Shown here in pieces: positions 16,783 through 62,810 of a stretch of 64,000 nt of DNA. The stretch is taken from NCBI GenBank assembly GCA_035221665.1, contig CM069166.1, forward strand, positions 9,486,001 to 9,550,000. Reading direction: 5' to 3'. A program made the position numbers and the translations under genes. The notes below the pieces were generated by a model. That model did no database searches, had not been told where the DNA came from, and saw only the letters and a list, made by a program, of their open reading frames with translations. Every line of letters starts with the position of its first letter. Positions within the stretch are counted from its first letter, which is position 1. The DNA comes from Okamejei kenojei. Taxonomy: Eukaryota.

Positions 16783-16878
16783 AGAAAGAGCTGCAGTTGC
16801 TGGTTTAAATCGAAGATAGACACAAAATGGTGGAGTAACTCAGCGGGACAGGCAGCATCTCTGGAGCGAAGGAATGGT
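16783..16878 (-). mobile_element. Penelope terminal-repeat fragment
   Basis: Same GACACAAAATG.TGGAGTAACTCAGCGGGACAGGCAGCATCTCTGGAG arm as other copies. Confidence 0.75.
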
Positions 16879-17197
16879 ATTGTTTCTCAGCTACAATACA
16901 AACCCATTCACTCTACTGGAATGAGCTTACAGCTCATGCATACAGGTCCCACCCACCCAAGTTTGGCAACACATAGAGTAGTCCCCCTACCCTGCCCACA
17001 GATGGCCCACCTTAGTGCAGCACCTTTTGATCCTGCCCCAACCAGAAAGTCCCATTACATTCTCATTTTACCCCCAGAATTTCCATAATGGGTAGACCTC
17101 AACATACATAGCACCGCTAATGTTACAAAGACATCCGTAAGCATTTTACAGGAGAGTTACCAAATACAAAAATGATACCAAGCCAAGTAAGGAGAAA

Positions 17198-17367
17198 GGA
17201 CACAAAATGCTGGAGTAACTCAGCGGGTCAGGTAGCATCTCTGGAGAGAAGGAGTAGGTGAAGGAGTCTGAAGAAGGGTTCCGACCCGAAACATCACCTA
17301 CTGCTTTTCACCAGAGATGCTGCCTGACCTGTTGAGTTACTCCAGCATCTGCAGTTCCTTCCTACAC
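17198..17367. mobile_element. Partly palindromic Penelope terminal-repeat element with + strand hammerhead core (17268-17295)
   Basis: TGCTGGAGTAACTCA...TGAGTTACTCCAGCA arms; CTGAAGAAGGGTTCCGACCCGAAACATC. Confidence 0.85.
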
Positions 17368-17544
17368 AGGAAGAAAAGGACAGCAGCCAATCCAAGTCAA
17401 TCCAAATGGCAGAACGCAAGGAATGCCTCGGTGCAAAGTTGCAAAGTTCTGAAGCAAAGTTGAATGATTTGGAATTCCAGAAGTTAGGGCCTCAGCGTTG
17501 ACGGTGTAGCTTTAAATTGTGCAGCAATTACATTTGGGAATAAA

Positions 17545-17870
17545 GAGGAACGCAGCAGAAAATGGGCAGCTGGAGGAACTCAGCGGGTCAGGCAGCATTT
17601 GTGGTGGGAAATAGATTGGTGGCATTTCAGGTTGAGACTACTCATCTGGACTGAAAGAGGTGAGATGGTCGTATAAAGACGTGAGACAAATCTGTGATCT
17701 CCTGTCTCCACTTGAATGATCCAAGACTATATGGTGCTAAAGGGCCATCGGAAAGTTAGGATTTGTCAAGAGTCTGAAGCCTGGACCTGACCCAAAACAT
17801 CACCTAGCTATGTTCTACAGGATGCTGCCCGACCCACTGAGTCACTTCAGCATTTTGCATTTTTCCCAGG
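17545..17870. mobile_element. Degenerate inverted Penelope terminal-repeat pair
   Basis: Diverged arms at about 17545-17650 and 17770-17865; hammerhead core decayed. Confidence 0.6.
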
Positions 17871-17889
17871 ATTTGTCAAGCCCTGGAAG

Positions 17890-18435
17890 AGATTTAAAAA
17901 AATGGGAGCCAAGTGGGTAAGCAAGTTCAATGGGATGATGTGAAGAAGGTTACAGACACCTTAAGCTTGGGCCGAGTTGAAAGAGTGGCCAAGCATGCAC
18001 TGGAATTGTTGAGTCTGGAGATAACAGTCATAAGACTTCAGATGCGTAAGACTACAGCAGCACACAGCAACATTACCAGAGTTGAAATACAGGTACTGGA
18101 ATGGCAGCACTTGGCTTGAAACACTACTGTGGGTCATATACTAAACCAAAGTGGCAAATGGCCGTGTTCACTTTCAGATGAATGTCCGGGAGAGGGAAGG
18201 AGTCAACAGCTAAGAAACGGAAGCATGGCTTCCCAATATTTACTTGAAAAAAATTCCAGCCACGGATTCTGACAAACTCTGATAGTTTAGAAACAGTATA
18301 ACGGTGCCGGGGAGAACAACACTTGGGCCATGTGTTTGCAAGTAAAAATTAAAATCGTGATTTTCGATGACATCACCAAAGGGTAATGTACAAATAATAA
18401 GGGAATGGTGGCAAAATACATTGAGGACACCAAAG
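17890..18435 (-). mobile_element. Old L2/CR1-group LINE RT fragment, interrupted by the hAT element
   Basis: Minus-strand FGVLNVF...IICTLPFGDVIENHDFNFY resembles the L2 'GVPQGS..LF.IYMLPLGDII..H...F' segment. Confidence 0.55.
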
Positions 18436-19494
18436 CAGGCACGTGCCGTCAGGGTAGGCAAGGTAGGCACTGCCTACCCTGACTAAAATTATGAAATGGC
18501 AATTATTAAATATAAATAGTAAAGGCATGGGAGAATTATGCCTATCTAAGAGATGGATCTCTTAGATAGGCATAATTATCCGTGCCTTTCATCCGCAGCG
18601 CTTGTAACACGGGAAGGGCTCAGCAGCCCATGTGCCGTCAGCGCTGCCTGAGCCGTCAGTTTCAAGGGAAGCTGAAAGCAGCAGAAATACTGCCTTTGCA
18701 GTACTGCGCAGGCGCAGCAGTATACTGCGCATGCCCAGCGCGAGTTTCTTGGCGGGATTTTTGATTTTTAAAATAATGAATAATGAATTGCCATTATTTT
18801 AATAGTTTCTCAGGAAACAAAGAGTGAAGAATGGACTTAATCTATCAATAACGTGGTAAGTGCATTTCTTGGTGCTTTATGTTTTTAAATACTGTATTTC
18901 CCGGGGTGGGGGGAGAGCTCCGTTCACAGTGTTTGGGGAGTCTGGCGTTGTGAAGGAGGGGATTGGGGTCAGTAACCCACTTGCCACACTCCGGTCTGAA
19001 TGCAGGTAGAAGGGACTAGGTGGGAGTAAGTGTTTGGCACGGAGTAAAAGGGCCGAGATGGCCTGTTTCCATGCTGTAATTGCTATATGGTTTTATTGTG
19101 ACCGGGGAGTGAATTAGCTTGGGCGGCCCCCCTCCTTTTCAACACTCCTGCCCTCCCCGCATCATTAACCCCTGGCACAGACTCTCCACACGCTGTGAAA
19201 TGAATTTTCCCTCCAAATGGACCCTTGAATTAGTATTGTCATTCAATAAGATGACAATTGATTTGACGTCCCAGTGTGCTCCCGTTTTTCCCACCATCTC
19301 TCCACCTGCCTTCATCCTCCGCCCCCCCACCCATTCAGTGATTAGAAAATGAAGGAGATTGAGAAGCCTTGGTAAAATTGAATTGTTACTTATTTTTTAC
19401 GAAGAGAACAATCTGCGCATGCGTGGTTTAAGATTTTTTTAAAAAAAAGCCGGCTGACTGCTTACCCCGAGTAATTACTCACGGCACGTGCCTG
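18436..19494. mobile_element. Non-autonomous hAT-type DNA transposon (1059 bp)
   Basis: Perfect 14-bp TIR CAGGCACGTGCCGT (18436-18449 / 19481-19494) and perfect 8-bp TSD CACCAAAG (18428-18435 / 19495-19502); no transposase ORF. Confidence 0.9.
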
Positions 19495-19552
19495 CACCAA
19501 AGGCAGTATTGCCCAGAATGGGAAGGGAAACTATCACTGGAATCTTGCATTA

Positions 19553-19710
19553 AGCACAAAGTGGTGGAGTAACTCAGTAGTTCAGGCAGCATTTCTGAAT
19601 GAGGCAGATCGGCAACATTGAGTTGGGTCTGAAGAAGACTCCCGACCAGAAACATCATCTATTCATATTCTCCAGAGTAGCTGTCTGAGTTACTCCAGCA
19701 CTTTATGTTC
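19553..19710. mobile_element. Degenerate palindromic Penelope terminal-repeat element
   Basis: TGGAGTAACTCAG / CTGAGTTACTCCA arms; CTGAAGA at 19629 and GAAACATC with broken stem II. Confidence 0.7.
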
Positions 19711-24539: not shown

Positions 24540-24760
24540 AGGGTTACGCAAAAAGCTGGAGAAACTCAGCGGGTGCAGCAGCATCTAAGAGGCGAAGGAG
24601 ATAGGCGACGTTTCGGGTCGAGACCCTTCTTCAGACTGAAGAAGGGTCTCGACCCGAAACGTCGCCTATCTCCTTCGCCTCTTAGATGCTGCTGCACCCG
24701 CTGAGTTTCTCCAGCTTTTTGTGTAACCCTCGATTCTCCAGCATCTGCAGTTTCTGCGTT
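24540..24760. mobile_element. Palindromic Penelope terminal-repeat element, hammerhead core on both strands
   Basis: 95-bp arms (24540-24634 / 24636-24730) with one mismatch, ~30-nt unpaired tail, imperfect flanking duplication AACATCA(AA)GTTTGCTA. Confidence 0.9.
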
Positions 24761-25339
24761 AACATCAGTTTGCTAACTAGTTAATGCAATGGTAAGTAGT
24801 GCAAACAGAAATACAAAATTATGTTGACTGATTTAATAAACAGGTAAAACTGTGGCAAAACACATTGATTAAAGGGAAGGCTGTCTACACAAAAAGCAGA
24901 CAGGTACTTGTAAGTGGATTGAAAAGGAAAAAAAATGCTCATCTACACTTTGCTAAAATATCTATCTTTATGCGCAAGCAGCTAAAATTGCTGCCAAACC
25001 ATGGATGTCATATGTATTGTGACTAAACCCTAACATATCATTGCAACTAAACCCAAATAAAAGGACAAATTTCCTGGTCTGTACATATCAAGATAAACTA
25101 ATAACACTACCAACATTGTGGATGTCACAACATGGCCAGTATATTTTGATCATTGATAAATGTTGTCATTTCAAAAGTCTGCTCCACTTAGAAGGGCAAT
25201 GGTGTGCCTTTCACAAGAGCAATGCAACGGCAACACCGCTTGCCAAGCCGGTCAATACATGTAATCAGGGCTACGTAATGAAGTAAGATGTTGTTCCTCA
25301 AGTACCCAACTGCAGTCACACACTCTAGCTAGTATCTGG

Positions 25340-25555
25340 CTTTAGTTTGGTTTAGAGATACAGCATGGAAGCAGGCTGTTCGGCCCACCGAGTGAGGGAG
25401 GAACTTGAAGATCTCGAAGAAAACCCAAGCAGGTCACGGGGAGAATGTACAAACTCGGTACAGACAAATACACGTAGGCAGGATTGAACCTGGGTCTCTG
25501 GCAATGTTTGCGCTCTAAGGCATCACCTCTACCGTTGCACCACTATGCCACCCAG
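25340..25555 (-). mobile_element. HE1/V-SINE-like SINE
   Basis: Reverse complement of the same head, core and tail. Confidence 0.75.
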
Positions 25556-25980: not shown

Positions 25981-27360
25981 TACAGTTATGACAAAGATTC
26001 AATGTTGAGGATTCAATGTTTTGCAGTTCTCCTGCTGTGTACAGCAGGATTGCCATGTAAAAATAATGCAACGGATGAGTGTCCAACAAATTGCTGAAGA
26101 GGACAATACAAAATCAAATTCCAGATCTTATTTTATATTTTCATTTATTTATTTTTTAAAAAGGGAAAATGATTTGAGAACATGATAGTTGAAAGCCATT
26201 TTGACTGCTAAAACTAAATGGGTAATTTATTCTAAACACTGCTGAGATTTCGAAGTATTTGGTGAAAATTCAGTCTCCTCGGGCAGGGAATGGAGAGATA
26301 CGGATAATGTGCAGCTCAGAGTTGGGACTATGCATCCTGTTGTGGGCCGAAGGGCTTGTTCCTGTGCTGTTCTGTTCTACATTCATTAATCTGTCCCAAG
26401 GCAAAAACAGAGCCATGACAGAAAGCTAAAAAAAAGGGAAGATTGAGTCCTGGTAAAACAACTTCAAAGACTTTTATTTTAATAATCAGAGCTACACTGC
26501 ACTTGCAGTAAACATGCAAGTGCAGTAAACACAGAGCTCATTCAACAGGCCATTTGCAACAGTTCACGAGGATGAATAACTACCAGTTAAGAAAAATCAG
26601 CAATGGGTAATAAATGCTAGCCTTGTCAGTAGTGCTCATATACTGAGAGCAAATTAGGAAACAAGAATTGGAGACTGAAAATGGTAGTTGCATAAATATT
26701 ACCAGATAAAATGTAATGCACTCATGTGGATTTTGGGATATTGGTTTGCAACGGATGTCCCTCAGTTTAAATAGGTATACCGGAAAATATCAAGGTAAAA
26801 TCAAACAGAAAATCTCATTAAATTTGCTGTTAGAAGTGCATGGGTCCACCTTCTGAGGAGTTTTTAAACAATTGCCAGTGTACCAGCTTATCTAGGATTT
26901 TAGTACGGAAATATTTATGTAACTTTGAAGAGACGTTATAAATATTGGGCAAACTTTCAACCTCTCCCCCATCCAACAGCGATACATCATTCAGCGACTA
27001 AGGCAACTGAACTAACAGCTTCTAAATAGTCAGATGCTATCAATATGGTGTTACAAGTTCCAGGACATTGTTAGTGAGGGTTAGGTATCTGCCATAACTA
27101 GTCTTCTGCACCAAAATTACAGAAGAACAAAAACATTATTAAAATGTAAAGAAGTCCTTAGTTTTTTTTTAGCTGAAAGGGCTTCACAGGAACTGGCTCT
27201 TAAAGTGGTAGGTGAAATCTGACAGTTAGCCTGTCTTTATTTGGAGTTCCAACCTACGCCTTTAAGATGAGAACGCTGCACAGAAACAAGTGACCAATTT
27301 TTCTTTTTCTTTTTTATAATTATGTGAACATGTTTGCTTAAACACCAAACACAAACTTAC

Positions 27361-27855
27361 TTCTCTTTTTCTTTGGATGGGGCTCCTCGTCCTCGGATGG
27401 CATGGAGGAGCTTGGGGTGCATTCAGTTATGTTGCTTTGGCTCAGATCAGTGGGAGTGTAGCACTCGTTCGGAGGCATTTTGTCTGTCTCTGGATTCTTC
27501 TGCACCGGTGAGGTTGGGAAGCCCAGCTCTACTGTTTTGGGCTGCACCGGCTCCAACTTCACTGTCTTACCCCCTGGTAATGAACACAGCTCCCCTGGCA
27601 ACTCCTTAACTTTTTCTATTGATTTGATATTGTTTCTGATGGGCTTTGGAAGGGGGCGATCCTGCACACAGTTCACAGAGGTACCGGGACTAATATTGGG
27701 CTTCTGGCGGATCCATTCCCTCAGGGTGTCTATCGGTGAGCCGTTGATGTGCCATTCAGTCACCCCGAACTGTCTGAGATGGGCTCTGGCATGGCTGGCT
27801 AAAGCTTTCCGGTTTTCAAAGTAGTGGCCGCATAATTCGCAGCAAGTGTCTGCAG
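27361..27855 (-). CDS. WIZ: WIZ exon 7 (zinc finger CCELCGHYFENRKALASHARAH; PTDLS motif)
   Basis: cctgcag|CT...AGA A|gtaag; 495 nt, phase 1->1; within ORF 27338..27880. Confidence 0.95.
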
Positions 27856-29605
27856 CTGCAGGGAAGAGACCAGGACACAAATCAACTTCTTAATGTGGCT
27901 CCAGTCGCTTCATTATGCAGCTATCGTTCAAATGAAATTAATGTACAACAGTCCCAATTGTAAAGACTGGAGTTTGTTCTGTACATGCTGAGCTAAGATA
28001 TTTGGTGCATAGACGGTGGTTAGTCCAGCCATTAAGCCAATGTCAAATTATCAACATTTAAACCAGTCCCAATCATCTGCTCATCTACCTTTATAAATGA
28101 CATTTATCAAATATTTATCCATCGTCCTCCCAAAGTGCATTATTATGTGTGTCAGGGAGCATTCTCCTTATCCTAATAAACCTGTGCTTACATAAGCTTA
28201 TAATTCTGCCCTCTTATTAAAACCCTTTTGAATTGAACTACAGGGTACTAAAACCATTTTGAATTCAACTACAGCTCCCACCATCCAATCTTAATGGAAA
28301 AATGCTCCATGAGATGACGTGGATTCCAGTGCATAAATCTGCAGAGAAGCGAATTGTCGGTTCAGTGTGGGCTTTTCCTGTTGGCGGAGTAAGTAAAGAA
28401 AATGACTCTGAGGTACTGGCCAGGGATGGTTTCTGTGTTGAGTTAGCTGGTCTCAGCCAGGAACAAAGTGGGAGAACTACAAGTGAATGGACAACCTGTT
28501 GGGGCAAAGGAGGAGATTAAATTAAATCTTGTTGGGATTTCTTATGATATGCGACAGGACTTAGGGCAAGGTCAAGATCAGACCCAGTTGCATTGCTCTC
28601 CGTGGTTTAAATCTGTAGATATTCTCAGTCTCGGGCTCCAATGTGAAGAATGCATACATAAAGGACTGGTCCCAACCTTAAGACCTGCAAACGAGAAAGC
28701 CAGTGCCTGAAGGAGACAAAGAGAAACTGGAAAAAACACAAGTAAAATAAGAATTGCCTTTCCACACAACGAGTTTGCTTCATCAAGACAAGAGATTGTT
28801 TTCTAATTACTCTACTTTGAGCGCTTAAATGTCCAGTTAATGCTTAATATCAAAGAGTTCATGCAAGATACCTGCAGTTTAAACTCCCACCCTTGGGCAC
28901 TAATACCATAAGAAATATAAATACAGCGATATTTAGTGGAATAAAAATGGCTTTTTTATAGATTTGAATAAGTAATTTTACCTCTTGTTGTTTCCACCTG
29001 CTGTTAATAATTGAGAGATGAGCAGATGAAACCCATAAAGAAGAAACTCAAACGAAACAGTACTGTTATCTCAAAATGTAAAGATAATCAAGTAGATTAT
29101 TAATGCATCATGGTATCCAAAAGATTGAAATTTGTTTAAGGCCAATCCTTTTCAATAAAATAAATGAATACCAGCCTTGAAATACAGCTGTACTCATTAT
29201 GAGGAGTTTTTTTGTTTAACAATGCACAACTTTAACGGTGTGCAGCCATTCATCTGTCTTCATTGCTGAAGAAATAGGTCCAGAAAATGTCACCTTGTCA
29301 TGTAGGTGTCACCTTGACTGTTAAGCTCTTGACAGCCTTTCAACTTTGCAATATTTTCTCCCTCATGAAAAGCTGCACAAATTAGCTTCAGCTTCTCTCC
29401 AGGAAACTCAAGGTGTGCTTCTATGCATGGTCGGGTCAGTGTACACAGGTTGTAAAGAAAATGGGATAACCTGGGAATTTTTCTTGCAAACAGCTGCTGA
29501 GAAGCAATCCCAGATGTACAGAGCAGCCTGCCCACTGATCAATAATATGGTACCATAACATGCAGCACGGTGAAAGAAAATAGTACTCGAAATAGACTGA
29601 CTTAC

Positions 29606-30157
29606 CAATTACCGGTGTCGTTGTCACCTTCTCCTGTGGAGACCAAGTGGCCTTCGGCTTATAGGAACCCGATTCCGTGTAGCTGGGCTTCAATTCATGT
29701 GTCATGGCTCTTTCATCTGGCATGGATTTCTTTAGTGATGCAGTCGATACAAAACCCATGGGTATTTTCTTTCCCAGAGGTGACAAGGTTGGATGTTGGC
29801 TGTTAGGTGTATAGGTCAATACTTTTCTAGTTGGGGCTGTCAGATGCTTTTGATGCATCACCTTAACGGGTGACTTAATAATATGTCCAAATGGCTTAGC
29901 AATGGGTTTCTCCTCGTATTTGTAGTTCTGGGGGTCTTGTTGCAGCCCCTGTTGCTCTGGGTCGTGGCCAAATGGTTCATGCTTCCCCTTTCTTTTCATC
30001 AGCTCCTTTAGTGTGTCAATTGGTGAACCGTTCACTGTCCATTCAGTCACCCCAAACTGCCTCAGATGCGACCTGGCATGGCTCGACAGTCCCTTGCGAT
30101 TCTCAAAGTATTCACCACAGAATTCACAACGGACATCTTTGCTAGGTTGATCAACTG
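29606..30157 (-). CDS. WIZ: WIZ exon 6 (zinc finger CEFCGEYFENRKGLSSHARSH)
   Basis: ggcag|CAG...ATT G|gtaag; 552 nt, phase 1->1; within ORF 29436..30164. Confidence 0.95.
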
Positions 30158-31314
30158 CTGCCAAAACAAAGACATTTGATCTGAGATTTAATTTGAAGGA
30201 AGACTCTTATAAGATGAACTGAAAGTAAAATAAGTGAGGTGGGGGGGTGGGGGGGTGGAAGAGGGGGAAAATATGACGAATATGAAATATTTTAGTTAAT
30301 AACCTACATCGTGTATTAACATTGAAAAGCCAGGCTAAGACCAAAATCTTCCTTTTCTCAGTGAGACATTTACAATTGCCACACCACAACCACCCCCGAT
30401 TCTTGATTATCAAGAACAGTATTATCATTTAAGTGCTTCCAAATTTTAAATATATTTTTCTTAGACAAAGTGAACCTGATAATTCCCTGAATCAAAGATT
30501 CCCGAGCTGTGTTGTTTATCATGGGATGGGGAGAGATACACAAGATAAATTGTGCAATGAAAGATTCACTGAGGCTTGGGTATTTAACACAGGGGGAGGT
30601 CAGGATGTTGAATAGATAGATGTTAATAATAGGCACATAAGGGTTAAAGTATAAAACATTTGCCAGTTGAAGTAAGCAGAATAGCTGGTTAATCTGGAAC
30701 AATGTAATAAATTATCAATGTATGAGATAATGAATTACTCCAGCACTTTGTGATTATCAATGTATCACCTATGTACAGAGGAGGAGAATGGAAAGCCTTG
30801 TTCTATCTATCAAAATTTAAAACCCACTGAAATGTTGGGCCAGTTAGTTGTTGGGCATTTTCTAATGTTTATACTTGCTGCTCTTGTAAATTGAAAACGC
30901 ATGTGTAACAAAAGCTTCTTCACGAGGTGGACCGGATTCAGACCATCAGACTTCTTGCTGTGTGTAATATAAGCTGCTCTGCAGAACATTAAATATCATT
31001 AAATACTCAGTAACTCAGTGGGTCAGACAGCATCTATGGAGAACATGGATAGGTATTCACCAGAGATGCTGCCTGACCCACTGAGTTTGCGCCTTTTTTT
31101 TGGTAAACCTGCGCCTGCAGTTCCTTGTGTGCTCATTTAAACGTCTGGACAAACAGCTAAATCAATATCCACGCAGAAACACACCTGTGAAACTGTCCTA
31201 TACCCCTTTCGTTAGCATGTCTTCCCCAGCCAACAATGGGCCATAATCGACTCTATTCTCCCCGAGGTCATCTGTTGCCAGACACCATTATTCTGGCCTT
31301 TTCTCGCTTCCAGG

Positions 31315-31485
31315 CATACCTAGCCAATTAACCTACAAACCTGTACGTCTTTGGAGAGTGTGAGGAAACCAAAGATCTCAGGGAAAACCTATGTGGTCAA
31401 ACTCCGTACAGACAGCACCCGTAGTCGGAATCGAGCACGGGTCTCTGGCACAGCAAGCGCTGTAAGGTAGCAGCTTTGCCGCCCT
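31315..31485 (-). mobile_element. HE1/V-SINE-like SINE fragment
   Basis: GCCAATTAACCTACAAACCTGTACGTCTTTGGAG...CAGACAGCACCCGTAGTC. Confidence 0.75.
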
Positions 31486-32838: not shown

Positions 32839-33043
32839 AGACACAAAATGTTGGAGTAATTCATTTGGTCATGTAGCATCTTTGGAGAAAATAAAAAGTT
32901 AGGGGACTCTCAGTCTGAAGAAGGGTCTCAACCCAAAATATCACCTATTCCTTTTCTCCAGGGATGCTGCCTGTCCTGCTGATTCATTCCAACATTTTGT
33001 GTCTATCTACAGTATAAATCAGCATCTGCAGTTCCTTCCTACA
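32839..33043. mobile_element. Palindromic Penelope terminal-repeat element with imperfect 16-bp flanking duplication
   Basis: AGACACAAAATGTTGGA / TCCAACATTTTGTGTCT arms; flanks ACACTTTTACTATTAT / ACACTCTTGCTATTAT; GAAA mutated. Confidence 0.8.
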
Positions 33044-37688: not shown

Positions 37689-37721
<33 letters not shown>

Positions 37722-45913: not shown

Positions 45914-45917
<4 letters not shown>

Positions 45918-45998
<81 letters not shown>

Positions 45999-46004
45999 TA
46001 TATA
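45918..46004. repeat. Compound (TA)n/(CA)n microsatellite
   Basis: Direct reading; about 55 nt inside intron 3 from the exon 3 donor. Confidence 0.95.
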
Positions 46005-46057
46005 CTGTGATTTTACAAATCAGATCACTTTCATGCCCAATAGTGACCATAACTTAC

Positions 46058-48723: not shown

Positions 48724-48899
48724 GGAGGCAGACAAAAATGCTGGAGAAACTCCGGGTGAGGCAGCATCCATGGAGCGAAGGAAATAGGCGACGTTTCGGG
48801 TCGAGACCCTTCTTCAGACCCATTAAAATAACTGTCCTGTCTATCATAAATACCTATCCCGCTGAGTTACTAGTTACTCCAGCATTTTGTGTCTACCTT
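48724..48899. mobile_element. Penelope terminal-repeat insertion flanked by 13-bp duplication CACTAAAATAACT
   Basis: Duplication at 48711-48723 and 48900-48912; a third variant copy lies at 48821-48833. Confidence 0.8.
48783..48824 (-). ncRNA. Minimal type I hammerhead ribozyme motif in WIZ intron 2 (sense to WIZ)
   Basis: Minus strand AAUGGGU-CUGAAGA-A-GGGUC UC GACCC-GAAA-CG-UC-GCCUAUU: intact core, stem II, 7-bp stem I with two G-U pairs; stem III reduced to the palindrome ACGU. Activity untested. Confidence 0.7.
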
Positions 48900-50671
48900 C
48901 ACTAAAATAACTTATCTGGTCATAATCATATTGTTATTTAGCAGAGGAATATTGTGTACAAATTGGTTACCATAAACGCTTTAATACAATAGTGACCAAA
49001 ATATTTTATTGGACCAGAGATGTCTTGAAATGGACACAAAGGGCAATGTGGATATATATAGTATTGTGTTGATGACCATCACAATTCCATTATTATGGGG
49101 AGGCACATGGGCGGTGAAAGAATCCGCGGGTAAAATAAATGCTGGTCATCTGAAGAAGGGTCTCGACACGAAGTGTCACCCATATCTTCTCTTCAGAGAT
49201 GCTGCCTGTCCCACTGAGTTACTCCTGCCTTTTGTCACTATTTTTGGTCATTTAAATACGTGCATCTTCAAGCTTGTTTCGGAAAAAATACCGAATACAA
49301 GCTGACATGATGGGAGATCCAAATCCATCGTAACATCCATCTGCATTTGTCTTCAGATCAAGTATGGCAAAGAACAACAAGCTAAGAAATTTCAATCCTG
49401 GGTAAGAATACAATCATTAACTCACTTACATGACTAACAGTTAGTCTAGTGAAGATGTAAGATTTCTACTATCTTCCCCTGAAGTGGCATTAATAATTAC
49501 ATTGACAAATTCGAGTTGCTGCATATTCAGCTTCACAAGAACCAAAACATTCAATGTCACCCCTGCAACTAGTTAAGCACAGGAGGCTTTCTCCCTATAC
49601 AGTTATTTCTAGAATGCGAACAACATTCTTGTTGTGCTGTACTTATCTACACAATGATTGCATGTGCACAGCATCAAAAGAGATTAGATTTATCTTAATA
49701 AAATAACCTAACAGTAAAGCATACCGTCTAAAAGACAAATGGTATTTTAGACAATTGACACTTTCAACACTAAATGCATTTTCACTTTCATGTGACAAGG
49801 TGCAAGTAATAAAGGTAACGTTCACATTCCAATTTAAACCCTGATGCGATATTAACAATGTTTCTGCTAAATGCTGCCAAATATATCCGATTTATTCCTC
49901 TACACAGTTCAGCTGCAAAGGCCATATTCCTCCCGTTTTAGGATAATGACCTAATTCAAAATGTCCAAAACACACCACTATAGATTGTTAAAAATAAAAG
50001 TAAAAATGTGTAGAAGAAATGGTAGAAAGGCTTTTCAACAGTTCTTACATCTATGGATTAACAAACCGATCCAGATAAGTGATACTGGTGTCTCAAAATC
50101 AAACACTCTTTGTGACAAGTATCATATTCAGCATTCATAGATGACATGCAGCAAGGCAAAATCCACCACATTCCTCCACACTCTCCAACAATAGGCCTCA
50201 TCTTCAAAAAAACACTGCCTCTTCATTTTCCATTTCCTACACAAGCCATTACTGTTCCAAGTGAAAATGTCGTGTACATTTCTGACCACACACTGTAAAC
50301 TGATTTTGAACAAGGTCAATGCAAGCAGTAGACAGATTTCATTCCATAACCCTGGGCTACAATTCAGTAAGAATCTCAAAGAAAACAAATCTTAAATTAC
50401 TGTTTCCGAATTGAAAGGAAAATCTAAACAATATAAGATGGAGGCTATTTGATCTCATCAATGGCATTCCCGATGCACATGGCACTGATGGAACAAGTAA
50501 ATTAAGCACCATACAGTAAGATGGTAACCTCCTCCACAAACTAATATAACATACAAATTAAATGCATTCCAGGCATCTTTCCATTGATTTTCATTATTAT
50601 CAAGTATTTTACTGGGTTCAAGACGATTCTTGTCATCTCTTCACTGATCAAGACAACTGTGGTAAACTTAC

Positions 50672-50869: not shown

Positions 50870-51654
50870 CTGAAATCAGAAATTATATTGAGTTATTTCA
50901 ATCGTTAAGATCCCCAAAGATCAAATATCTTTTGGTAGGCCCAGTGTACAAAAAGCAAGGATTAGAAAAGACTAAAATGAGGGTACAAGGCCACTTGGAA
51001 TTCCCCGTGCTCAAGAATAGTTTTGCTGGTAGAACATTTCCAGATCACTGTCACTCAAATTGTAATGATTGAGGTATCTGGACTGAGGTGTATTGAGTGA
51101 TTTAGTCAGTGACAACACTGCCTGTATTATGCTTGCAATATATTCACATTTAACACCATGCCCTGGTAACTGGACAGCAATTATGAAGTAAAACTGTTAA
51201 TTCCTCTATTCCTTGCCTCAACCTACATACCTAATGGAAGACTCCCCAAAAAAACGGTTAAAATCAATCAATTCAGCTCAGATCAATAAATTCAAAGAAC
51301 TTCTTATGTGGTTTGTACTACACCAAGTGATAAACTTCAGTCACAAGGTTAAAGGGAAGAGTTATAAATATTAAAGTTTTAAACAAAACAATTAACATTT
51401 ACAATTATTTGAGTTTATCAACTGAAGCAATTTACTGGGGTTACATCCCTATTTTACAATGGTCTGTTAGCTCGGCAACTATGAACATTGAAAATTTAGG
51501 GAGTTACAGACATGGGAAGAAGGACTGAGAGGGTGAGAAACATCTTACTCAAGAGTGATGTACCATCTTTGAGAATCTTTACCGTACAAAACTCTGGATA
51601 CACTGGTTGTTGAATAAGCTCCTCACTGAGATGTTGGATGTTGGATACACTGAG

Positions 51655-54227
51655 ATGTTGGGTGTTGTGTACAGGCCACCTAACAGTAGCAGTGAAGTTG
51701 GGGATGGTATCAAACAGGAAATTAGAAATGCGTGTGACAAAGGCAAAACAGTTATAATGGGTGACTTCAATCTACATATAGATTGGGTGATTCAAATTGG
51801 CAGGGGTGCTGAGGAAGAGGATTTTTTGGAATGTATGCGGGATAGTTATCCAAATCAACATGTAGAGGAACCAACGAGAGAGCAGGCTATTTTAGACTGG
51901 GTTTTGAGTAATGAGGAAGGGGTAGTTAGACGTCTTGTTGTAGGTGCTCCCTTGGGCAAGAGTGACCATAATATGGTTGAGTTCTTCATTAGGATGGAGA
52001 GTGACATTGTTAATTCAGAAACAATGGTTCTGAACTTAAAGAAAGGTAACTTTGAGGGTATGAGACGTGAATTGGCCAAGATTGACTGGCAATTAATTCT
52101 AAAAGGGTTGACGGTGGATATACAATGGAAGACATTTAAAGACTGCATGGATGAACTACAAAAATGGTTCATCCCAGTTTGGCAAAAGAATAAATCGGGG
52201 AAGGTAGTGCATCCGTGGATAACAAGGGAAATCAGGGATAGTATCAAAGCAAAGGGTGATGCGTACAAAGTAGCCAGAAAAAGCAGCATACCAGAGGACT
52301 GGGAGAAATTCAGAGACCAGCAGAGGAGGACAAAGGGCTTAATTAGGAAAGGAAAAATAGATTATGAAAGAAAACTGGCAGGGAACATAAAAACTGACTG
52401 CAAACGTTTTTATAGATACGTGAAGAGAAAGAGATTAGTTAAAACAAATGTAGTCAGAAACAGGTGAGTTGATCATGGGGAACAAGGATATGGCGGACCA
52501 ATTGAATAACTACTTTGGCTCCGTCTTCACTAAGGAAGACATAAATAATCTGCCGGAAATAGCAAGGGACCGCGGGTCAAAGGAGGAATTGAGTGAAATC
52601 CAGGTTAGTCGGGAAGTGGTGTTGGGTAAATTGAATAGATTAAAGGCCGATAAATCCCCAGGGCCAGATAGGCTGCATCCCAGATTACTTAAGGAAGTAG
52701 CTCAGGAAATAGTGGATGCATTAGTGGTACTCTTTCAAAACTCTTTAGATTCTGGAGTAGTTCCTGAGGATTGCCGGGTAGCAAAAGTAACCCCTCTTTT
52801 TAAGAAGGGAGGGAGAGAGAAAACGGGGAATTACAGACCAGTTAGTCTAACATCGGTAGTGGGGAAACTGCTAGAGTAGTTATTAAAGATGAGATAGCAG
52901 CACATTTGGAAAGTGGTGAAATCATTGGACAAAGTCAGCATGGATTTACGAAAGGTAAATCATGTCTGACGAATCTTGTGGATTTTTTCGAGAATGTAAC
53001 TAGTAGCGTGGATAAGGGAGAACCAGTGGATGTGGTATATCTGGACTTCCAGAAGGCTTTCGACAAGGACCCACATAAGAGATTAGTATGCAAACTTAAA
53101 GCATACGGCATTAGGGGTTCAGTATTGATGTGGATAGAGAACTGGCTGGCAAACAGGAAGCAAAGAGTAGGAGTAAACGGGTCCTTTTCACAATGGCAGG
53201 CAATGACTAGTGGCGTACCGCAGGGCTCAGTGCTGGGACCCCAGCTATTTACAATATATGTTAATGATCTGGATGAGAGAATTGAAGGCAATATCTCCAA
53301 GTTTGTGGATGACACTAAGCTGGGGGCAGTGTTAGCTGTGAGGAGAATGCTAGGAGTGCAAGGTGACTTGGATGGGCTGGGTGAGTGGGCAAATGTTTGG
53401 CAGATGCAGTATAATGTGGATAAATGTGAGGTTATCCACTTTTGGTGGCAAAAACAGGAAAGCAGACTATTTTTTAAATGGTGGTCGATTAGGAAAAGGG
53501 GAGATGCAGCAAGACCTGGGTGTCATGGTACACCAGTCATTGAAAGTAGGCATGCAGGTGCAGCAGGCAGTGAAGAAAGCGAATGGTATGTTAGCTTTCA
53601 TAGAAAAAGGATTTGAGTATAGGAGTAGGGAGGTTCTACTTCAGTTGTACAGGGTCTTGGTGAGACCACACCTGGAGTATTGCGTACAGTTTTGGTCTCC
53701 AAATCTGAGGAAGGACATTATTGCCATAGAGGGAGTGCAGAGAAGGTTCACCAGACTGATTCCTGGGATGTCAGGACTGTCTTATGAAGAAAGACTGGAT
53801 AGACTTGGTTTATACTCTCTAGAATTTAGGAGATTGAGAGGGGATCTTATAGAAACATAAAATTCTTAACGGGTTGGACAGGCTAGATGCAGGAAGATTG
53901 TTCCCGATATTGGGGAAGTCCAGGACAAGGGGACACGGCTTAAGGATAAGGGGGAAATCCTTTAAGACCGAGATGAGAAAGACTTTTTTCACACAGAGAG
54001 TGGTGAGTCTCTGGAACTCTCTGCCATAGAGGGTAGTTGAGGCCAGTTCATTGGCTATATTTAAGAGGGAGTTAGATGTGCCCCTTGTGGCTAAGGGGAT
54101 CAGAGGGTATGGGGAGAAGGCAGGTACGGGATACTGAGTTGGATGATCAGCCATGATCATATTGAATGGCGGTGCAGGCTCGAAGGGCCGAATGGCCTAC
54201 TCCTGCACCTAATTTCTATGTTTCTAT
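51655..54227 (+). mobile_element. 5'-truncated CR1-clade LINE (ORF2 endonuclease + reverse transcriptase, disrupted), antisense in WIZ intron 1
   Basis: APE motifs GVVYRPP, IMGDFN, LDWVL, SDHN; RT motifs YRPVSLTS, YLDFQKAFDK, SGVPQGSVLGP, FVDD; split across four ORFs by frameshifts/stop; ends in a TTCTATG repeat tail. Confidence 0.95.
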
Positions 54228-55227: not shown

Positions 55228-55510
55228 TTTAGTTTAGTTTATTAGTTTAGTTCACGAATCCACATCGACCAGCGACCTTCGCACATTAACACTACATGCA
55301 TTCAGGACAATTTAACATTTTTATACCAAGCCAATTAACCTACACACCTGTATGTCTTTGGAGTGTGGGAGGAAATCGAAGATCTCTGAGAAAACCCACG
55401 CAGGTCACGGGGAGAATGTATAAATTCCATACAGACAAGCACCCATAGTCAGGATCGAACCTGGGTCCCTGGCGCTGTACGGCAGTAGCTCTGCTACGCC
55501 ACCGTGCCGC
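55228..55510 (-). mobile_element. HE1/V-SINE-like SINE
   Basis: Reverse-complement head, core and (TTTAG)n tail. Confidence 0.8.
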
Positions 55511-56270: not shown

Positions 56271-56654
56271 TCTTACGAATTACAGCAATTGACCATTAAA
56301 CCTCACAAATAATCCCATAAAACTCAATACCAGGTCAAAAGCAATTTTCTCTATGACAGGTGGCACAAATATTTTGCCCTTAAATATTTACTGAATGTTA
56401 TTCAAATAAAACTCAGAAATGTAATTTTACAAATGTGACCATGGTACAAAAAAATGATTGCTTCTTCATATTTCAATGAAAACCATCATGACACTGCCCG
56501 ACCCAAAACAGCTTAAGAACAATTTAGCAGAACAGCTGAATATACTGCTGGTATTCTAGCAAGAAATGTTACTGAATTAATTGCTGAAAAATGTGAATAT
56601 TCACTTCCACTCTAAAAGTATTTTGAAGCAACGTCTAAATATAATTTGAATGTA

Positions 56655-56962
56655 GTATAGTGTAGTTTAAAGATACAGCGTGGAAACAGGCACTTCGGCC
56701 CACCGTGTCCATGCAGATCAGCAATCCCTGCACATTAACACCACCCTACACACTAAGGAAAATTTACAATTATTCCAAGCCAATTAACCTACAAACATGT
56801 ACGTCTTTGTAGTGTGGCAGGAAAACGGAGATACCGGAGAAAATCCACGCAGGCCACAGGGAGAACGTACAAACTCCGTGCAGACAGCACTGATAGTCAG
56901 GATTGATCGCAGGTTTCTGGTGCTGTAAGGCAACAACTCTACCGCTGTGCCACCATACCACC
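56655..56962 (-). mobile_element. HE1/V-SINE-like SINE, near full length
   Basis: Same family motifs on the minus strand. Confidence 0.85.
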
Positions 56963-57253
56963 CCATTTTTGAGTGATAAAAAAACTGAATGGCTCTTTGC
57001 CCTACATTGCACTCTGAGTGACCTCAAAAAAAAAATAACAGCATTTCCTCTCTGACTCAGAGTGCAATTTAAAGGGACATTTCTGTAAACAAGCCACACT
57101 ACAGTTTTGCAAATGAGACAAAAATCTAACACATCTTGAAGAACTGGCTTGAGGATAACTTCCTCAAGCCAGTTCTGAATCCTGACAGTCTGATTAAAAT
57201 AACTTTCTGTATATAAACCTTTAAAGGGAACAGGACAAAACAAATGTTGAAGT

Positions 57254-57735
57254 TAGGTAGACACAAAAAGCTGGAGTAACTCAGCATCTCTGGAGAGAAA
57301 GAACTGAGATGCTGCCTGTCCCGCTGAGTTACTCCAGCATTTTGTGTCTACCTTCGATTTAAACCAGCATCTGCAGTTCTTTCCTAGAAATGTTGAAGTA
57401 AATTGAATTGTGTTGTCAATATTTCCTGTCAGGAAAGCTTCTGTGAAGAAGATTTTAGACAGTTGTGTAGGAAAGAACTGCGGATGCTGGTTAATAAACC
57501 GAAGATAGACAAAGATCTGGAGTAGACACAAAATGCTGGAATAACTCAGCATCTCTGGAGGGAAGGAATGGGTGATGTTTCGGGTCGAGACCCTTCTTCA
57601 GACCGAAAGTCAGGGGGAAAGGAAACAAAATATGGCAGTCTGAAGTAGGTCGACCCGAACGCTACCTATTCCCCTTCTCCAGAGATGAGGCCTGACCCGC
57701 TGAGATACTCCAGCCTTTTCTGTCTATCTTCTGTC
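57254..57735. mobile_element. Two adjacent Penelope terminal-repeat elements (57254-57387 with 12-bp TSD; about 57465-57735 with - strand hammerhead core 57574-57601)
   Basis: AAATGTTGAAGT at 57242-57253 and 57388-57399; inverted arms read directly. Confidence 0.8.
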
Positions 57736-57889
57736 TATGATGTTGGACAGTTAATAGCTTGTAAAACCTATATAGCCCAGCAACCATTGAATGTACATAT
57801 GAAACTGAAACTGTTTATGTGTATTAAATGTTGATGCCAGTTGCCTAGTTTATGAATGTAATAAACTAGGCAACAGAACACTATAACAA

Positions 57890-58200
57890 TGGACCTTTCT
57901 GTCCTGGGCCTCCTCCATGGCCAGAGTGAGTACCACCACAAATTGGAGGAGCAGCACCTCATATTTCCCTTGGGTAGTTTGCACCCCAGCGGTATGAACA
58001 TTGACGTCTCCAATTTCAGGTAGTCCTTGCTTTCTCCCTCCTTCCCCTCCCAGCTCTCCCACAGCCTCTTCCTTTCTTCTTCCTGCCCCCCCCTCCACAT
58101 CGGTCTGTTAGAAGGGTCTCGACCCGAAACGTCACCTATTCCTTCGCTCCATAGATGCTGTCTCACCCGCTGATTTTGCTCCAGCATTTTTGTCTACTAT
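57890..58200 (+). mobile_element. Penelope-like element 3' end: endonuclease C-terminus + terminal repeat with degenerate hammerhead
   Basis: DLSVLGLLHGQSEYHHKLEEQHLIFPLGSLHPSGMNIDVSNFR*, then a pyrimidine tract, then CTGTTAGAAGGGTCTCGACCCGAAACGTC (58105-58133). Confidence 0.85.
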
Positions 58201-60504
58201 AAAAATGGAAACCCTTCACAGGAGTTAACTTTTCAGGAAGTTGTGACAGAAATATTATTCACATTCAAACTAAATAGGTGATTGAAGTGGAAAGTCAGTG
58301 ATAGGAAAATCACGTGGACGATGTGATTAATTGCTGACAAGAACAGATTGGACCAAATTACTATTTCCCCATTTAATTTGGTCACACTGCAGGCGAGTTC
58401 TGCAGTTGCAACTATGCGGGAAATTTTAACTGCTTTGTTCTTTCCATTAAAACTCATTTGACACAGCTCTCTGACCTATCATCGACTGTAATCAGTCTGC
58501 TTCTATCTCACTTTTCCAGAAAATTAAAACTCCAATTCAATAGTCTTTGATACTGGCAATAAACAAAAACCATTTCCAAAATTTTGTGCAGGTATCCTTA
58601 AAAGGAAAGACAACTTAGTCTAGAAGCCACATTTGAAAGTTATGCTCTGAAACCAAAGTAAGTTTTCTTAAAGAATTATATGGCAAAAGCTACACTTAAG
58701 AAAATGGTTCATATTCCTTTTTGTACATAAATAAAACCTAACATCCTACCAATGAAGAGAAGCTCACAGAAAGATAGATTTAAAAGCATGTTTAAGCTAA
58801 AGGAGAAAAATAACCAAATTTACTGCAACCTCATTCGTACAACTTTTGCACCAACTACCTTCCAATAATAAGGCTAATTAAAATAAAAGGGCTCGCAATT
58901 ATTCAAGATTCAGCCTTTCACATACCCTCTTGGTGTACAAAATTAAACTTGCCCAAACTTTCATCTCCGCTATCATGTTCTACTCACCAATTACTCTCTC
59001 TGATTTTTACTGGCTTCCTATCCCTTCTTGATTACATTTACTGGTCTTGCTTTATTGGGTTGCAGGACGACCAAAATGGAGGCGAAGGCAGCAACGAGCC
59101 AGTGTTACCAGCTGCAGATGGGACTGTAAAATGGCGCCAAAATTGCACCAATTGGGGGACTGGGGGGTGGTGAGGATGGGTGATATGGGTGGGTGGGTGA
59201 CTGGCAGATAGGGGGAGTAAGTGACAAAGGCTAGTGAAAAGGAGACAGACAAGCAGAGAAATGGAGCAAACTGTAAAGTCGGAAGGGGGGTGGATATGGG
59301 TAGGAGGACATAAAGACGAAGGGAAAGAGGGGATAAAAGAAATATGGGATTAAGAGACTCAAGGAATTGCAGATGCTGGAATCTTGAATAAAACAAAGTA
59401 CGGGATCCTTCTTCAGACTAGGATTGGAAAGAAGCGTAAAAGAAGCAGGGTACCTGGGATGATGAGAAATAGTGGTAGGAGGAACTATTCAATGTGTTCT
59501 GTGTTCATCCATCCCACTATGCTTGACACTTCATTCAGGAAAGCTGCTATCATCAGTTAGAAGCTGACTGGAAGTGCAGAATCAATAATGTGTACACAAA
59601 ACACATTCCTCTTCCTTGACCTTTCCTGCTGAAGCTTCAAATACATCGAGTATATCTTAAGTGCAAAAAACTCTCAAATTCGTCTCCTCTCCTATTGACA
59701 GCAAATTTCATTAAAAAAAAAATCAGGAATATAATCTGGGGATTTTACAATAGCATATTTTCAATTGAGTAATTTCAGTTTTGTGAATCAATAACAAATT
59801 AGTTTACACCTAACTTCAAGATCATTACATACTGCCTGTAGAAGGCGTGTTTTATTAACCAGTACAGTGCTAACGTGATTTTTTTTAAAAGCTACATTTT
59901 TACCACCTAGTTTTGCAAACAACGATTTCAGTTTCCAGGCTGTACAAACCCTGTTCCTCCAGCACTTTGTGTTTCACTGCACATTATTGATTATGAAAAC
60001 TAATAAACTCAAAATGCAAGACAAGCGACTACGAGAAATTGTTTATTGTGAAATCGAAATTTTTCGTTAAAGAGGAAAAACATTCTGGATATGTAAACAG
60101 AGGCAACTGTAGCTGCTAGTTTACCAACTGAATAAAAACAAAATGCTGGAGTATCTCAGCATCTCTGGAGCGACGTTTTGGATCGGGACACTCCTTCAGG
60201 GATGTTACCATAATAATGCCCTCTCACCCCAACCATACCCAATTAGTCTGAATGGTTTCGGTGTCGTCGTTCTCCCCCCCACCGTAACGTCGGTTATCCA
60301 TTCCCTCCACGTATGCAGCCTGACCAACTGATTTATTCCAATACTTTGTGTCTGTTTTAATTTTTTTCTGTGGGTTGATTGCATTTTTATGATTTTCAAT
60401 GAGTGCATTTGTATTCTGGAAATTAAATAATTAACAGGAGCGAACAAATTGCGATGGCGAAGTCCTGACTTGGGACTTCGGGGTCCCGAGGAATAGGTGA
60501 CCGG

Positions 60505-60900
60505 GGCCAGGATAAAGGGGTGAGGGGCGAGGAAGGGGTGAAGAAGGGGAGGGGGCGAGGGCGAGGAAGGGGTGATCGGGGAAGGGGATCGGGGCGAGAG
60601 GGGTTCGGGGAAGGGGTGAGAGGAGCGAGGAAGGGGGTGAGGGGCGAGGAAGGGGTGAGAGGGGGAAGGGGTGAGAGGGGGAAGGGGTGATCGGGGAATG
60701 GGCGAGGAAGGGGTGAGGGGGCGAAGAAGGGGTGATCGGGGAAGGGGTGTGAGGGGCGAGGAAGGGGTGAGAGGGGGAAGGGGTGATCGGGGAAGGGGGC
60801 GAGGTAGGGGTGATCGGGGTTCGGGGGCGAATAAGGGGTGATCGGGGTTTCGGGAAAGGGTGATCGAGGCCCGAGGAATGGGTGATCGGGGTTCGGGGAA
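60505..60900. repeat. G-rich minisatellite (units such as GAGGGGCGAGGAAGGGGT / GATCGGGGAAGGGGT) at the start of WIZ intron 1
   Basis: About 20 degenerate 15-18 nt units with GGGG runs visible directly. Confidence 0.85.
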
Positions 60901-61221
60901 ATCGGGCGCCCAGGCCTTGGTGCAAAGGGACGCCTGGAATAACGGCAACTGCTCCGGGTTGTTATGCCGAGGCTGAAGGCGGGTTCTGCCTCCTCCGGGG
61001 GAAGACGGAGGGGTCATTACGACTCGGGGGCGCTACAGGCGCCCGGGCCGGACTCTGGCCGTCACCCCGGCAACCGCCCCCCGTCTCTCCGGCCCTCAAC
61101 CGCCACCAGGCCTTGGTCTGTGTGCGTTAGTGTGAGGGGGGGGGGGGGGAAGATCTCTCTCCCTCCCCCACCACCTCCCACGGCTCTCTCCCTCCGCACA
61201 AACCTCCCCCCGCTTGCTTAC

Positions 61222-61312
61222 CGTCGCCTCCGCCGCTCGGCTCCTTCATTTTGGGGCAGTCGCGGGGCTCGGCCTTTGTCAGGTTCTCCGGGCTGGCGGC
61301 GGCGGCGGCCAT
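61222..61312 (-). CDS. WIZ: WIZ exon 1 (short-isoform-type first coding exon)
   Basis: aagATGG Kozak context in a CpG island; MAAAAASPENLTKAEPRDCPKMKEPSGGGD, G|gtaagc donor, phase 1. Joining all 10 exons gives an uninterrupted 3351-nt frame. Confidence 0.8.
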
Positions 61313-61465
61313 CTTAGGAGAGGGAGAACGCGCGGCCGGCCAGGCGGGGGCGAGCGCCGCGCACTCGATGGGGAGGAGCGGGCGGCGGGGAGAGCCATCC
61401 AGCCCCGAGCACCCGATCGCCGACCGCCGATCACCCAAGTGACGTCATCGCCAATTCCCATGAGT

Positions 61466-62045
61466 AGTGTTAAAGAAGGAACTGCAGATGCTGGAAAATC
61501 GAGGGTTTACACAAAATGCTGGAGAAACTCAGCGGGTGCAGCATCATCATCTATGGAGCGAAGGAGATAGGCAACGTTTCGGGCCGAAACCCTTCTTCAG
61601 AGTAGTGTATGGAGGAACTGCAGATGCTGGTTTAAACCGTAGACAGACACAAAATGCTGGAGTAACTCAGCGGCACAGGCAGCATCTGAAAAAGGGTCTT
61701 GACCCGAAACGTCACCCATTCCTTCTCTCCAGAGATGCTGCCTATCCCGCTGAGTTACTCCAGCTTTTTGTGTCCATCTCCCAACAACACGAGTACGTTT
61801 GAAGAGTCTGAAGAAGGGTCTCGTCCCGAAACATCGGCCATTCCTTCTCTCCAGAGATGCTGCTTGACCCACTGAGTTACTCCAGCTTTTTGTGTCCATC
61901 ATGAGTATGTGTAGTTTAGGAAGGAACTGTAGATGCTGGTTTAAACCGAAGATAGACACAAGAAGCTGGAGTTATTCAGTGGGTCGGGCAGCATTTCTGG
62001 AGAAGAAGAATAGGTGACGTATCGGGTCGAGTCCCTTCTTCAGGC
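61466..62045. mobile_element. Cluster of about 5 Penelope terminal-repeat units in mixed orientation immediately upstream of the WIZ promoter
   Basis: Repeated GGAACTGCAGATGCTGG and GAGTTACTCCAGC units; hammerhead-like cores at 61573-61600(-), 61686-61713(+), 61808-61835(+), 62016-62043(-). Confidence 0.85.
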
Positions 62046-62089
62046 AGATACTCTGAAGCTGGCATACTGATAGTCTGATAGCTAGTATG

Positions 62090-62393
62090 TTTAGTTTAAT
62101 TTGGTTTAGAGATACACTGCAGAAACAGGCCCACCAAGTCTGACTGACTAGCGATCCCTGCAAATTAACACAACCCTACCCAAACCTGGGACAATCTTTT
62201 ATATTTACACCAAGCCAATTAACCTACAAACGTGCACATCTTAACCTACAAAACAAATATCTCAGAGAAAAACCCATGCAGGTCATGGGGAGAACGTACA
62301 ATCTCTATACAGACATGTATCTGTAGTCCGGGTCTAACCTGGGTCTCTGGCGCTGTAAGGCAGTAGCTCTACTGCTACGCCACCATACCGCCC
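62090..62393 (-). mobile_element. HE1/V-SINE-like SINE
   Basis: Same family motifs on the minus strand. Confidence 0.8.
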
Positions 62394-62404
62394 ATATGTA
62401 TGTA

Positions 62405-62810
62405 TAGGAAGGTAGACCCAAAATCCTGGAGTAACTCAGCGGAACAGGCAACATCTCCGGAAGGAAGGAATGCGTGACGTTTCAGGTCAAGACCCTTCTT
62501 CATACTGAGAGTCTGAAGACTATCGGAAGGAACTGCAGGTGCTGGTTTAAACCGTGGACAGACACAAAAAGGGGGTGGGAGATTGCAACCTTCACGTGGT
62601 CCGCCCTGTTTTGAAGAATGCAATCAACCTGCCGTGCACAATCAAATAAGATCAAATAGAACAAGTTGTCCTACAACTTTAGGTTGTGCACGCCATACGC
62701 AAGAAGAAGAAGACACAAAAAGCTGGAGTAACTCAGCAGGTCAGGCAGCATCTCTGAAGAAAAGGAGTAGGTGATGTTTCGGGATGAGACCCTTCTTGTG
62801 TCTATCTTTC
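62405..62810 (-). mobile_element. Further Penelope terminal-repeat units, one interrupted by a 139-bp insertion
   Basis: Same arm sequence; see finding at 62560-62722. Confidence 0.75.

Follow-up and report, generated by a model that had tools for sequence, protein, structure and literature searches.

Short repeats that carry hammerhead ribozyme motifs are scattered over a 64,000 nucleotide (nt) stretch of the genome of Okamejei kenojei (assembly GCA_035221665.1, contig CM069166.1, positions 9,486,001 to 9,550,000 of the forward strand), hereafter the window, and they raise the question of what kind of mobile element they are. An earlier note had read them either as severely truncated Penelope insertions or as a non-autonomous family resembling retrozymes or short interspersed elements (SINEs). 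Here, we find that the short repeats derive from a Neptune-type Penelope-like element (PLE), whose terminal repeat (pLTR) they represent. As an explanation of the whole, we favor direct insertion, in which the short elements are probably solo and inverted pLTR copies inserted by Neptune-type PLEs themselves.

Two copies in the window are joined to coding sequence:

37349-38825, minus strand: decayed, 5'-truncated Neptune-type PLE with reverse transcriptase (RT) core, thumb, C-X4-CxxC linker (from 38055), GIY-YIG domain, C/T-rich spacer, pLTR and tail.
57894-58198, plus strand: 5'-truncated PLE with the endonuclease C-terminus, a stop at 58018-58020, an 85 nt spacer and a disrupted hammerhead core, without tail.

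In the first, which is about 1.5 kb long and had been overlooked in the earlier note, RT, thumb, linker and GIY-YIG were matched in order (E 2e-29), and the copy runs on into the same module and tail as the short repeats. It has several stops and frameshifts, and the hammerhead core is deleted from its pLTR. Its part from 38825 to 37747 is collinear with full-length relatives that carry RVT_1 and GIY-YIG; the PLE fragments of the window alone gave no relevant Pfam match. The second copy had been linked to a Penelope endonuclease before, and this was borne out: 57892-58005 codes for the C-terminal part of a PLE endonuclease (tblastn E 5e-8 to the stingray PLE protein P0007), and the hammerhead core at 58105 lies 85 nt past the endonuclease stop. 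This copy has its own 14 bp duplication (57880-57893 and 58196-58209). The closest named relatives of the protein fragments are from stingray, zebra shark and whale shark. The linker from 38055 on the minus strand, C-X4-CxxC ahead of GIY-YIG, fits the CX2-5CxxC pattern that defines Neptune and Nematis in the available text of PMC8557442 and therefore places the element with them, and the vertebrate host suggests Neptune rather than Nematis.

The same layout is found outside the window. A motif scan biased to short stems gave 23 hammerhead matches in 20 of 80 metagenome loci of related PLEs, which had been chosen for long open reading frames (ORFs). The same hammerhead lies 95-119 nt past the ORF match in 12 loci, the commonest family ends mostly at +81 to +90 (counted from the first C of CUGAAGA as 0, as for all positions within arms), and the spacing from the CUGANGAA box to GAAA is 12 nt in most of these hammerheads (L004-L066), as in the window. 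This layout identifies the module as an ordinary pLTR. An exact 28 nt motif had no match in metagenome contigs, PLE relatives were not found in viral contigs, and the 42 amino acid (aa) endonuclease end had no homologue at E<=0.001 among longer proteins. We found no paper on this family in cartilaginous fish; Repbase and Dfam, which lay outside the search, may catalogue it.

In both long copies (58018-58104; 37735-37450 on the minus strand), a donor-like AG/GT stands at the endonuclease stop, and a pyrimidine-rich spacer ends in an acceptor-like AG before the hammerhead. The spliced-form junction of such a putative pLTR intron was found neither in the window nor among the joints listed (15 of 1101) in relatives, and an intron between the endonuclease stop and the hammerhead is unsupported.

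Endonuclease-containing (EN+) PLEs of the Neptune and Nematis groups, as far as described in PMC3846280, PMC8557442 and PMC11167929, share with the window copies the RT with C-terminal GIY-YIG, the linker and the pLTR hammerhead. Furthermore, both have ends inverted head-to-head, a tail of 30-40 nt that may be present at one end, target duplications in the range of about 8-16 bp and solo pLTRs, as described for EN+ PLEs in the available text of PMC3846280 and PMC8557442. The window differs from these accounts in that it is dominated by solo and inverted pLTRs, 33 of 35 arms being without coding sequence and only two joined to it, and in that the 5' ends are piled up at one place.

These arms were counted by a profile search (nhmmer, profile from 16 arms, cut-off E<=0.05), which gave 35 pLTR arms, 17 on the plus and 18 on the minus strand, and no match in the reversed window used as control; a family of related short repeats does exist. 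The arms span 2,947 bases, or 4.6% of the window, and a degenerate arm at 59361-59419 on the minus strand, below the threshold, was left out of the count. The proposed elements of 100-250 bp are real as repeats but not as units, being single arms or head-to-head pairs of one module that is about 95 or 130 nt long. With arm ends partly adjusted by hand, the 3' ends are bimodal: 19 of 35 arms end at +84 to +101, 13 end at +119 to +128, none ends between and three are shorter. Exactly one tail is present in 8 of the 10 head-to-head pairs and two tails in none (P=0.04). Besides the two long copies, the copies are:

16777-16877, minus strand: single tailed arm that begins close to where cleavage is predicted; its duplication does not reach significance.
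17195-17367, both strands: head-to-head pair; the minus arm begins at about +26, close to where cleavage is predicted, and the tailed plus arm at -3.
17569-17665, minus strand: old diverged arm that extends upstream beyond the hammerhead start.
17771-17862, plus strand: single arm from -3 that immediately follows an exact 13 bp duplication (17758 and 17868).
19555-19709, both strands: diverged head-to-head pair without tail, 8 bp duplication.
24541-24764, both strands: head-to-head pair with a near-palindrome TCAG-CTGA at the junction; left arm without tail, right arm with tail; duplication at 24532 and 24767.
31009-31128, both strands: head-to-head pair; minus arm from +28, the first base past the predicted cleavage site.
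32837-33044, both strands: head-to-head pair with a 16 bp duplication; the plus arm begins at -10 and carries a tail.
48724-48900, both strands: head-to-head pair with a 14 bp duplication, part of which recurs as a third copy inside; the hammerhead of the minus arm, which begins at -3, is intact (core 48817).
49149-49241, plus strand: single arm whose 5' end is the first core base; the flanking repeat of 7 bp has p=0.09.
57255-57388, both strands: head-to-head pair without hammerhead; 12 bp exact duplication.
57465-57737, both strands: head-to-head pair with a degenerate 14 bp duplication; the minus arm carries a tail and extends 35 nt into upstream pLTR, the plus arm begins at -4.
60101-60355, both strands: diverged probable pair; no significant duplication.
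61468-62045, both strands: five-arm cluster around four degenerate copies of one target-like motif.
62408-62572, minus strand: two arms, of which one begins at -10, separated by a plus-strand stub of 10 nt that begins at -3.
62706-62995, both strands: minus arm at 62706-62797, beginning at +3, and an old plus arm at 62926-62995, beginning at -3.

In the pair at 24541-24764, both hammerheads are intact, and the transcript is predicted to fold into a hairpin of about 95 bp. Its arms are only 1 mismatch in 94 nt apart, yet about 7% from the majority of their own subfamily; the pair is either a young insertion from a divergent source or a product of arm-to-arm conversion. Between the five arms at 61459-62058 lie four degenerate copies of the target-like motif of 10-12 nt, which suggests repeated insertion at one site beside a CpG-island promoter. 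An identical 12 nt deletion between short direct repeats is found in three minus arms, at 57290, 57555 and 60165.

Flanking direct repeats of 17 insertion events were compared with 3000 random flank pairs; the cluster at 61.5-62.0 kb, the 37 kb copy and three small arms were outside this test. Duplications of 8-16 bp are significant (p<0.05) in 9 of the 17 events, where about one is expected by chance. The four duplications named in the earlier note are among these nine, each with p<=0.011: 24532-24540/24767-24775 (9 bp, exact), 32823-32838/33041-33056 (16 bp with 2 mismatches), 48710-48723/48899-48912 (14 bp, exact) and 57242-57253/57388-57399 (12 bp, exact). Independent insertion is thus supported.

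The insertion cycle that we propose starts from the pLTR module, which lies about 85 nt past the endonuclease stop in the long copies and ends at about +93 or +127. By analogy with the biochemistry of the anole PLE, the RT-endonuclease would nick both target strands 8-16 nt apart. Each nick end would then prime internal reverse transcription on pLTR RNA, usually one priming site being used by each. The two complementary DNAs (cDNAs) would grow inwards and join head-to-head, or one would join the target. Two internal priming sites have been shown in vitro for the anole element (PMC11167929, available text), and the two 3' ends in the window correspond to them. After insertion, the hammerhead decays at the rate of its flanks. 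Taken together, these steps are very likely to be right.

The 5' ends have a fixed position. The hammerhead start is reached by 21 of the 35 arms, and 15 of these 21 stop within -5 to +3 of the first core base. The stopping rate is 0.109 per nt in this interval and 0.0064 in the body of the module (P 2.5e-14), for ends that were curated by hand and an interval that was chosen after inspection of the data. Severely truncated insertions, as one of the two earlier suggestions had it, are nearer to the data than a retrozyme, but the truncation is not random. In the accounts of PMC3846280, PMC8557442 and PMC11167929, as far as available, the 5' truncation of PLEs is without a fixed edge.

Plain random truncation of PLE cDNA, typical of PLEs according to the available text of PMC8557442, could give an apparent edge as an artefact of the hypervariable C/T-rich spacer upstream, which differs strongly between the long copies. 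However, the edge adjoins the target duplication or the partner arm and not C/T-rich spacer. Four edge arms (17771, 48819, 49146 and 61601) abut the target duplication directly, so that neither a variable spacer nor fold-back can alone account for the edge. Contigs from four sequencing runs of related organisms, placed on 57440-58240, point the same way. Among the loose ends listed (24 of 2,313), large ones lie at 57601-57603 and continue into unrelated A/T-rich flanks (agreement about 0.33); those at 57603 comprise 2,131 contigs in X19 and 2,469 in X20, summed contig depth not being taken as copy number. A spacer artefact is therefore highly improbable. The position of the edge is known no more precisely than about -5 to 0, since the reference sequence carries a variant base at -3.

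The edge could also be set by RNA processing or joining, that is, by exonuclease trimming to a protein-protected fold or by annealing at TCAG-CTGA. The junction at 24.6 kb is centred on this palindrome, 14 of the joints listed in relatives (15 of 1101) run head-to-head from the same edge, and in the predicted folds, beginning at about -2, the core is paired with pyrimidines further downstream. Against this, arms that are joined straight to a target duplication, with no second cDNA, stop at the same place, and we consider such an origin of the edge unlikely.

In the insertion cycle proposed above, most cDNAs would instead be complete. They would be run-off products of an RNA that begins with the A located three bases ahead of the core, because a transcript initiated in the pLTR contains both priming sites in its first 130 nt, and complete reverse transcription would give units of about 95-130 nt. 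The long copies would need read-through into the 3' pLTR. Judged from the sequence, run-off from a transcription start site at the edge has about an even chance of being correct.

The majority sequence has TCAGTY at the edge. Counted from its A, CGANC follows at +18 to +22, similar to the motif ten element (MTE), and GWYV at +29 to +32, similar to the downstream promoter element (DPE); the motif consensus is from the available text of PMC5580651. TCAGTY is the Drosophila initiator and fits the vertebrate BBCABW as well. The window background per position is 0.0007 for TCAGTY, 0.0009 for CGANC and 0.035 for GWYV. An internal pLTR promoter has been shown for Drosophila Penelope (PMC2377424, available text). 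The first 35 nt of the pLTR could thus combine a hammerhead with an RNA polymerase II (Pol II) core promoter, with the initiator at the -3 A, the MTE-like motif on helix II and the DPE-like motif on the cleavage triplet, and each insertion of about 95-130 nt would be a complete self-promoting unit that the PLE protein recopies. If so, the repeats may form a Pol II-transcribed, ribozyme-headed, SINE-like class, whose head-to-head form may represent two cDNAs primed by one RT-endonuclease dimer. This reading is speculative and, on balance, improbable.

Several observations weigh against a start site and promoter at the edge. The match to the DPE fails at +28 and owes most of its letters to the GUC of the ribozyme, the +27 to +29 part of the MTE matches at one of three positions, and the initiator, MTE and DPE consensus motifs used are those of Drosophila. 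TCAGTY precedes the hammerhead in none of the 23 motif matches from other PLE loci, and only 2 of 14 inverted arms stop at the edge in these loci, which were selected for long ORFs. Within the window, 6 of 21 arms extend upstream beyond the edge, and 14 of 35 end within the module. Transcription of Drosophila Penelope starts upstream of an intron and not at the hammerhead. Our literature search found no paper on a promoter that overlaps a PLE hammerhead.

All seven cores that had been called intact (17268, 24636, 24634, 48817, 57601, 61600 and 61808) carry CUGAAGA and GAAA. However, three of them (17268, 57601 and 61808) have ACAT in place of the self-complementary ACGT needed for a dimeric helix III, and 61808 additionally breaks one pair of stem II. 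The arm with the core at 61600 on the minus strand retains a complete hammerhead, with U at position 17. A complete hammerhead is present in 4 of the 18 spanning arms, from three events, all of the younger subfamily, and two of these four lie inside the 95 bp hairpin. The stem II variants said to keep pairing are one-sided wobble changes, partly at a putative fifth pair, which would close a 2-nt loop and is hence really loop. At the four real pairs in 17 arms, 54 are unchanged, 9 broken, 3 wobble and 2 gapped; none is changed on both sides, so that compensatory changes are absent from these arms.

Counting substitutions only, with subfamilies taken into account and CpG sites excluded, the core has 11/168 and the flanks 104/916 (p=0.075), or 8/100 and 104/916 (p=0.40) without four edge positions favored by the alignment. 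The core is thus not significantly more conserved than its flanks, an outcome that the earlier note had itself named as refuting its reading. A first result (13/180 against 168/1010, p=0.0007) was rejected, as it counted deletions per base and took subfamily differences as decay. Most copies are decayed passengers in which the hammerhead decays at the flank rate. Conservation between subfamilies and across animals would reflect selection on active masters and not on inserted copies. With few intact arms, no conservation of the core above the flanks and no compensatory pairs, the idea of a very large ribozyme reservoir fails.

The majority sequence has the core boxes, the extra base after A9, helix II and the palindromic 15.2-16.2 of the minimal PLE hammerhead. 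It shares with the hammerheads of Cervera and de la Pena 2014 (PMC4209133, available text, in which cartilaginous fish are not covered as far as known here) CUGANGA, the extra base after A9, G10.1-C11.1, GAAA, the palindromic 15.2-16.2, the absence of a helix III loop and a very short helix I; the window differs in its helix II of 4 bp and helix I of 2-3 bp. Folds of the monomer mostly pair the core, the predicted hammerhead-like fold being 0.2-11.7 kcal/mol above the minimum in 7 arms, and for 6 single arms the folds were no more stable than those of shuffled sequences (z -1.2 to +1.9). According to the same text, the minimal type I hammerhead of metazoan PLEs cleaved weakly and only as multimers, and PLE hammerheads number in the thousands per genome (about 4,000 in coelacanth and 9,000 in Xenopus), scattered as single copies.

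A retrozyme-type family would spread via self-cleaved circular RNAs, with ribozymes selected in the copies. All copies that reach far enough derive from a hammerhead-bearing module, three arms start at +26 to +28 beside the predicted cleavage site (P=0.012, weak), and the joints listed in relatives include one that is head-to-tail (14 contigs, X19). Metazoan non-LTR retrozymes (LTR, long terminal repeat) are likewise non-coding, have a type I hammerhead and kinship with PLE pLTRs, and monomer derivatives are described (PMC7229834, available text; bioRxiv 10.64898/2026.07.22.740005, which sampled one chondrichthyan). However, they are tandem units of 150-450 bp with complete hammerheads in these sources, whereas the window copies are dispersed, single or head-to-head, and 95-130 nt long. 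No tandem array of the family is among the 13 rows given by Tandem Repeats Finder (TRF) for the window, and the only head-to-tail neighbors (61685, 61805) have no complete motif. No Rfam hammerhead was found in the window at E<=1. The repeats lack a helix III loop and have 1-3 bp in helix I, in place of the helix III and loop-loop contacts of a canonical type I hammerhead. The cleavage site is 30 nt downstream of most 5' ends, and selection on the core after insertion is not seen. An LTR retrozyme has a type III hammerhead in its LTRs and a 4 bp duplication, and the window has type I topology and duplications of 8-16 bp. The retrozyme reading is thus very unlikely. Seven Rfam matches in the window, all to microRNA families below the gathering score, were rejected; the four best lie on head-to-head pairs and are chance hairpin matches.

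A non-autonomous SINE-like lineage is compatible with direct insertion as a second layer. In such a lineage, solo pLTRs would bring along a Pol II promoter and priming sites of their own, and the PLE protein would copy their transcripts in trans. Fixed 5' and 3' ends and the scarcity of arms attached to coding sequence speak for it, as do private variants common to the 24.6 kb and 61601 arms and the recurrence of the 12 nt deletion. Mobilisation in trans driven by the pLTR has also been reported in rotifers (PMC3846280, available text). However, both subfamilies have members in the window with upstream or coding sequence (58100; 37446 and 57606). The deletion lies between short direct repeats and in one arm only of the 57.3 kb pair, and can therefore recur, and the data come from one window. 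No SINE head derived from tRNA, 5S or 7SL has an Rfam match in the window, and the arms are wholly pLTR sequence. We regard a separate lineage as possible but rather doubtful.

The window has a G+C content of 40.7%. Exons of a WIZ/ZNF644-like C2H2 zinc-finger gene lie at 27338-46595 on the minus strand, and a CpG island at 60500-61500 with a candidate first exon directly adjoins the densest cluster of PLE arms. At 51559-54227 on the plus strand there is a fragmented long interspersed element (LINE) with AP endonuclease and RT domains, which we take to be CR1/L2-like. A second dispersed repeat family of SINE-like size (200-310 bp) has copies at 3205-3479, 25341-25554, 42290-42590, 43718-43897, 55268-55510, 56653-56963, 62092-62394 and 63025-63265. 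An open frame of 173 aa at 4218-4739 on the plus strand is rich in Glu and Asp, has an internal 27 bp repeat and is possibly an exon of a neighboring gene.

The repeats of the window are largely ordinary and belong to a known class of PLE ends, with the fixed 5' edge as their unusual trait. As a ribozyme reservoir they carry little weight, thousands of dispersed PLE hammerheads having been published already and most window copies being decayed. The integration cycle of PLEs and the role of their hammerhead are described as unresolved in the available text of PMC11167929 and PMC8557442. Many tiny insertions with both junctions readable are a natural record of nick spacing, priming sites, the template's 5' terminus and the use of cleaved RNA. 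If the RNA does start at the edge, this would explain how solo pLTRs swamp full-length PLEs, and it would provide a route from a PLE to non-autonomous elements. The fixed 5' edge is thus a modest, testable lead on PLE integration.

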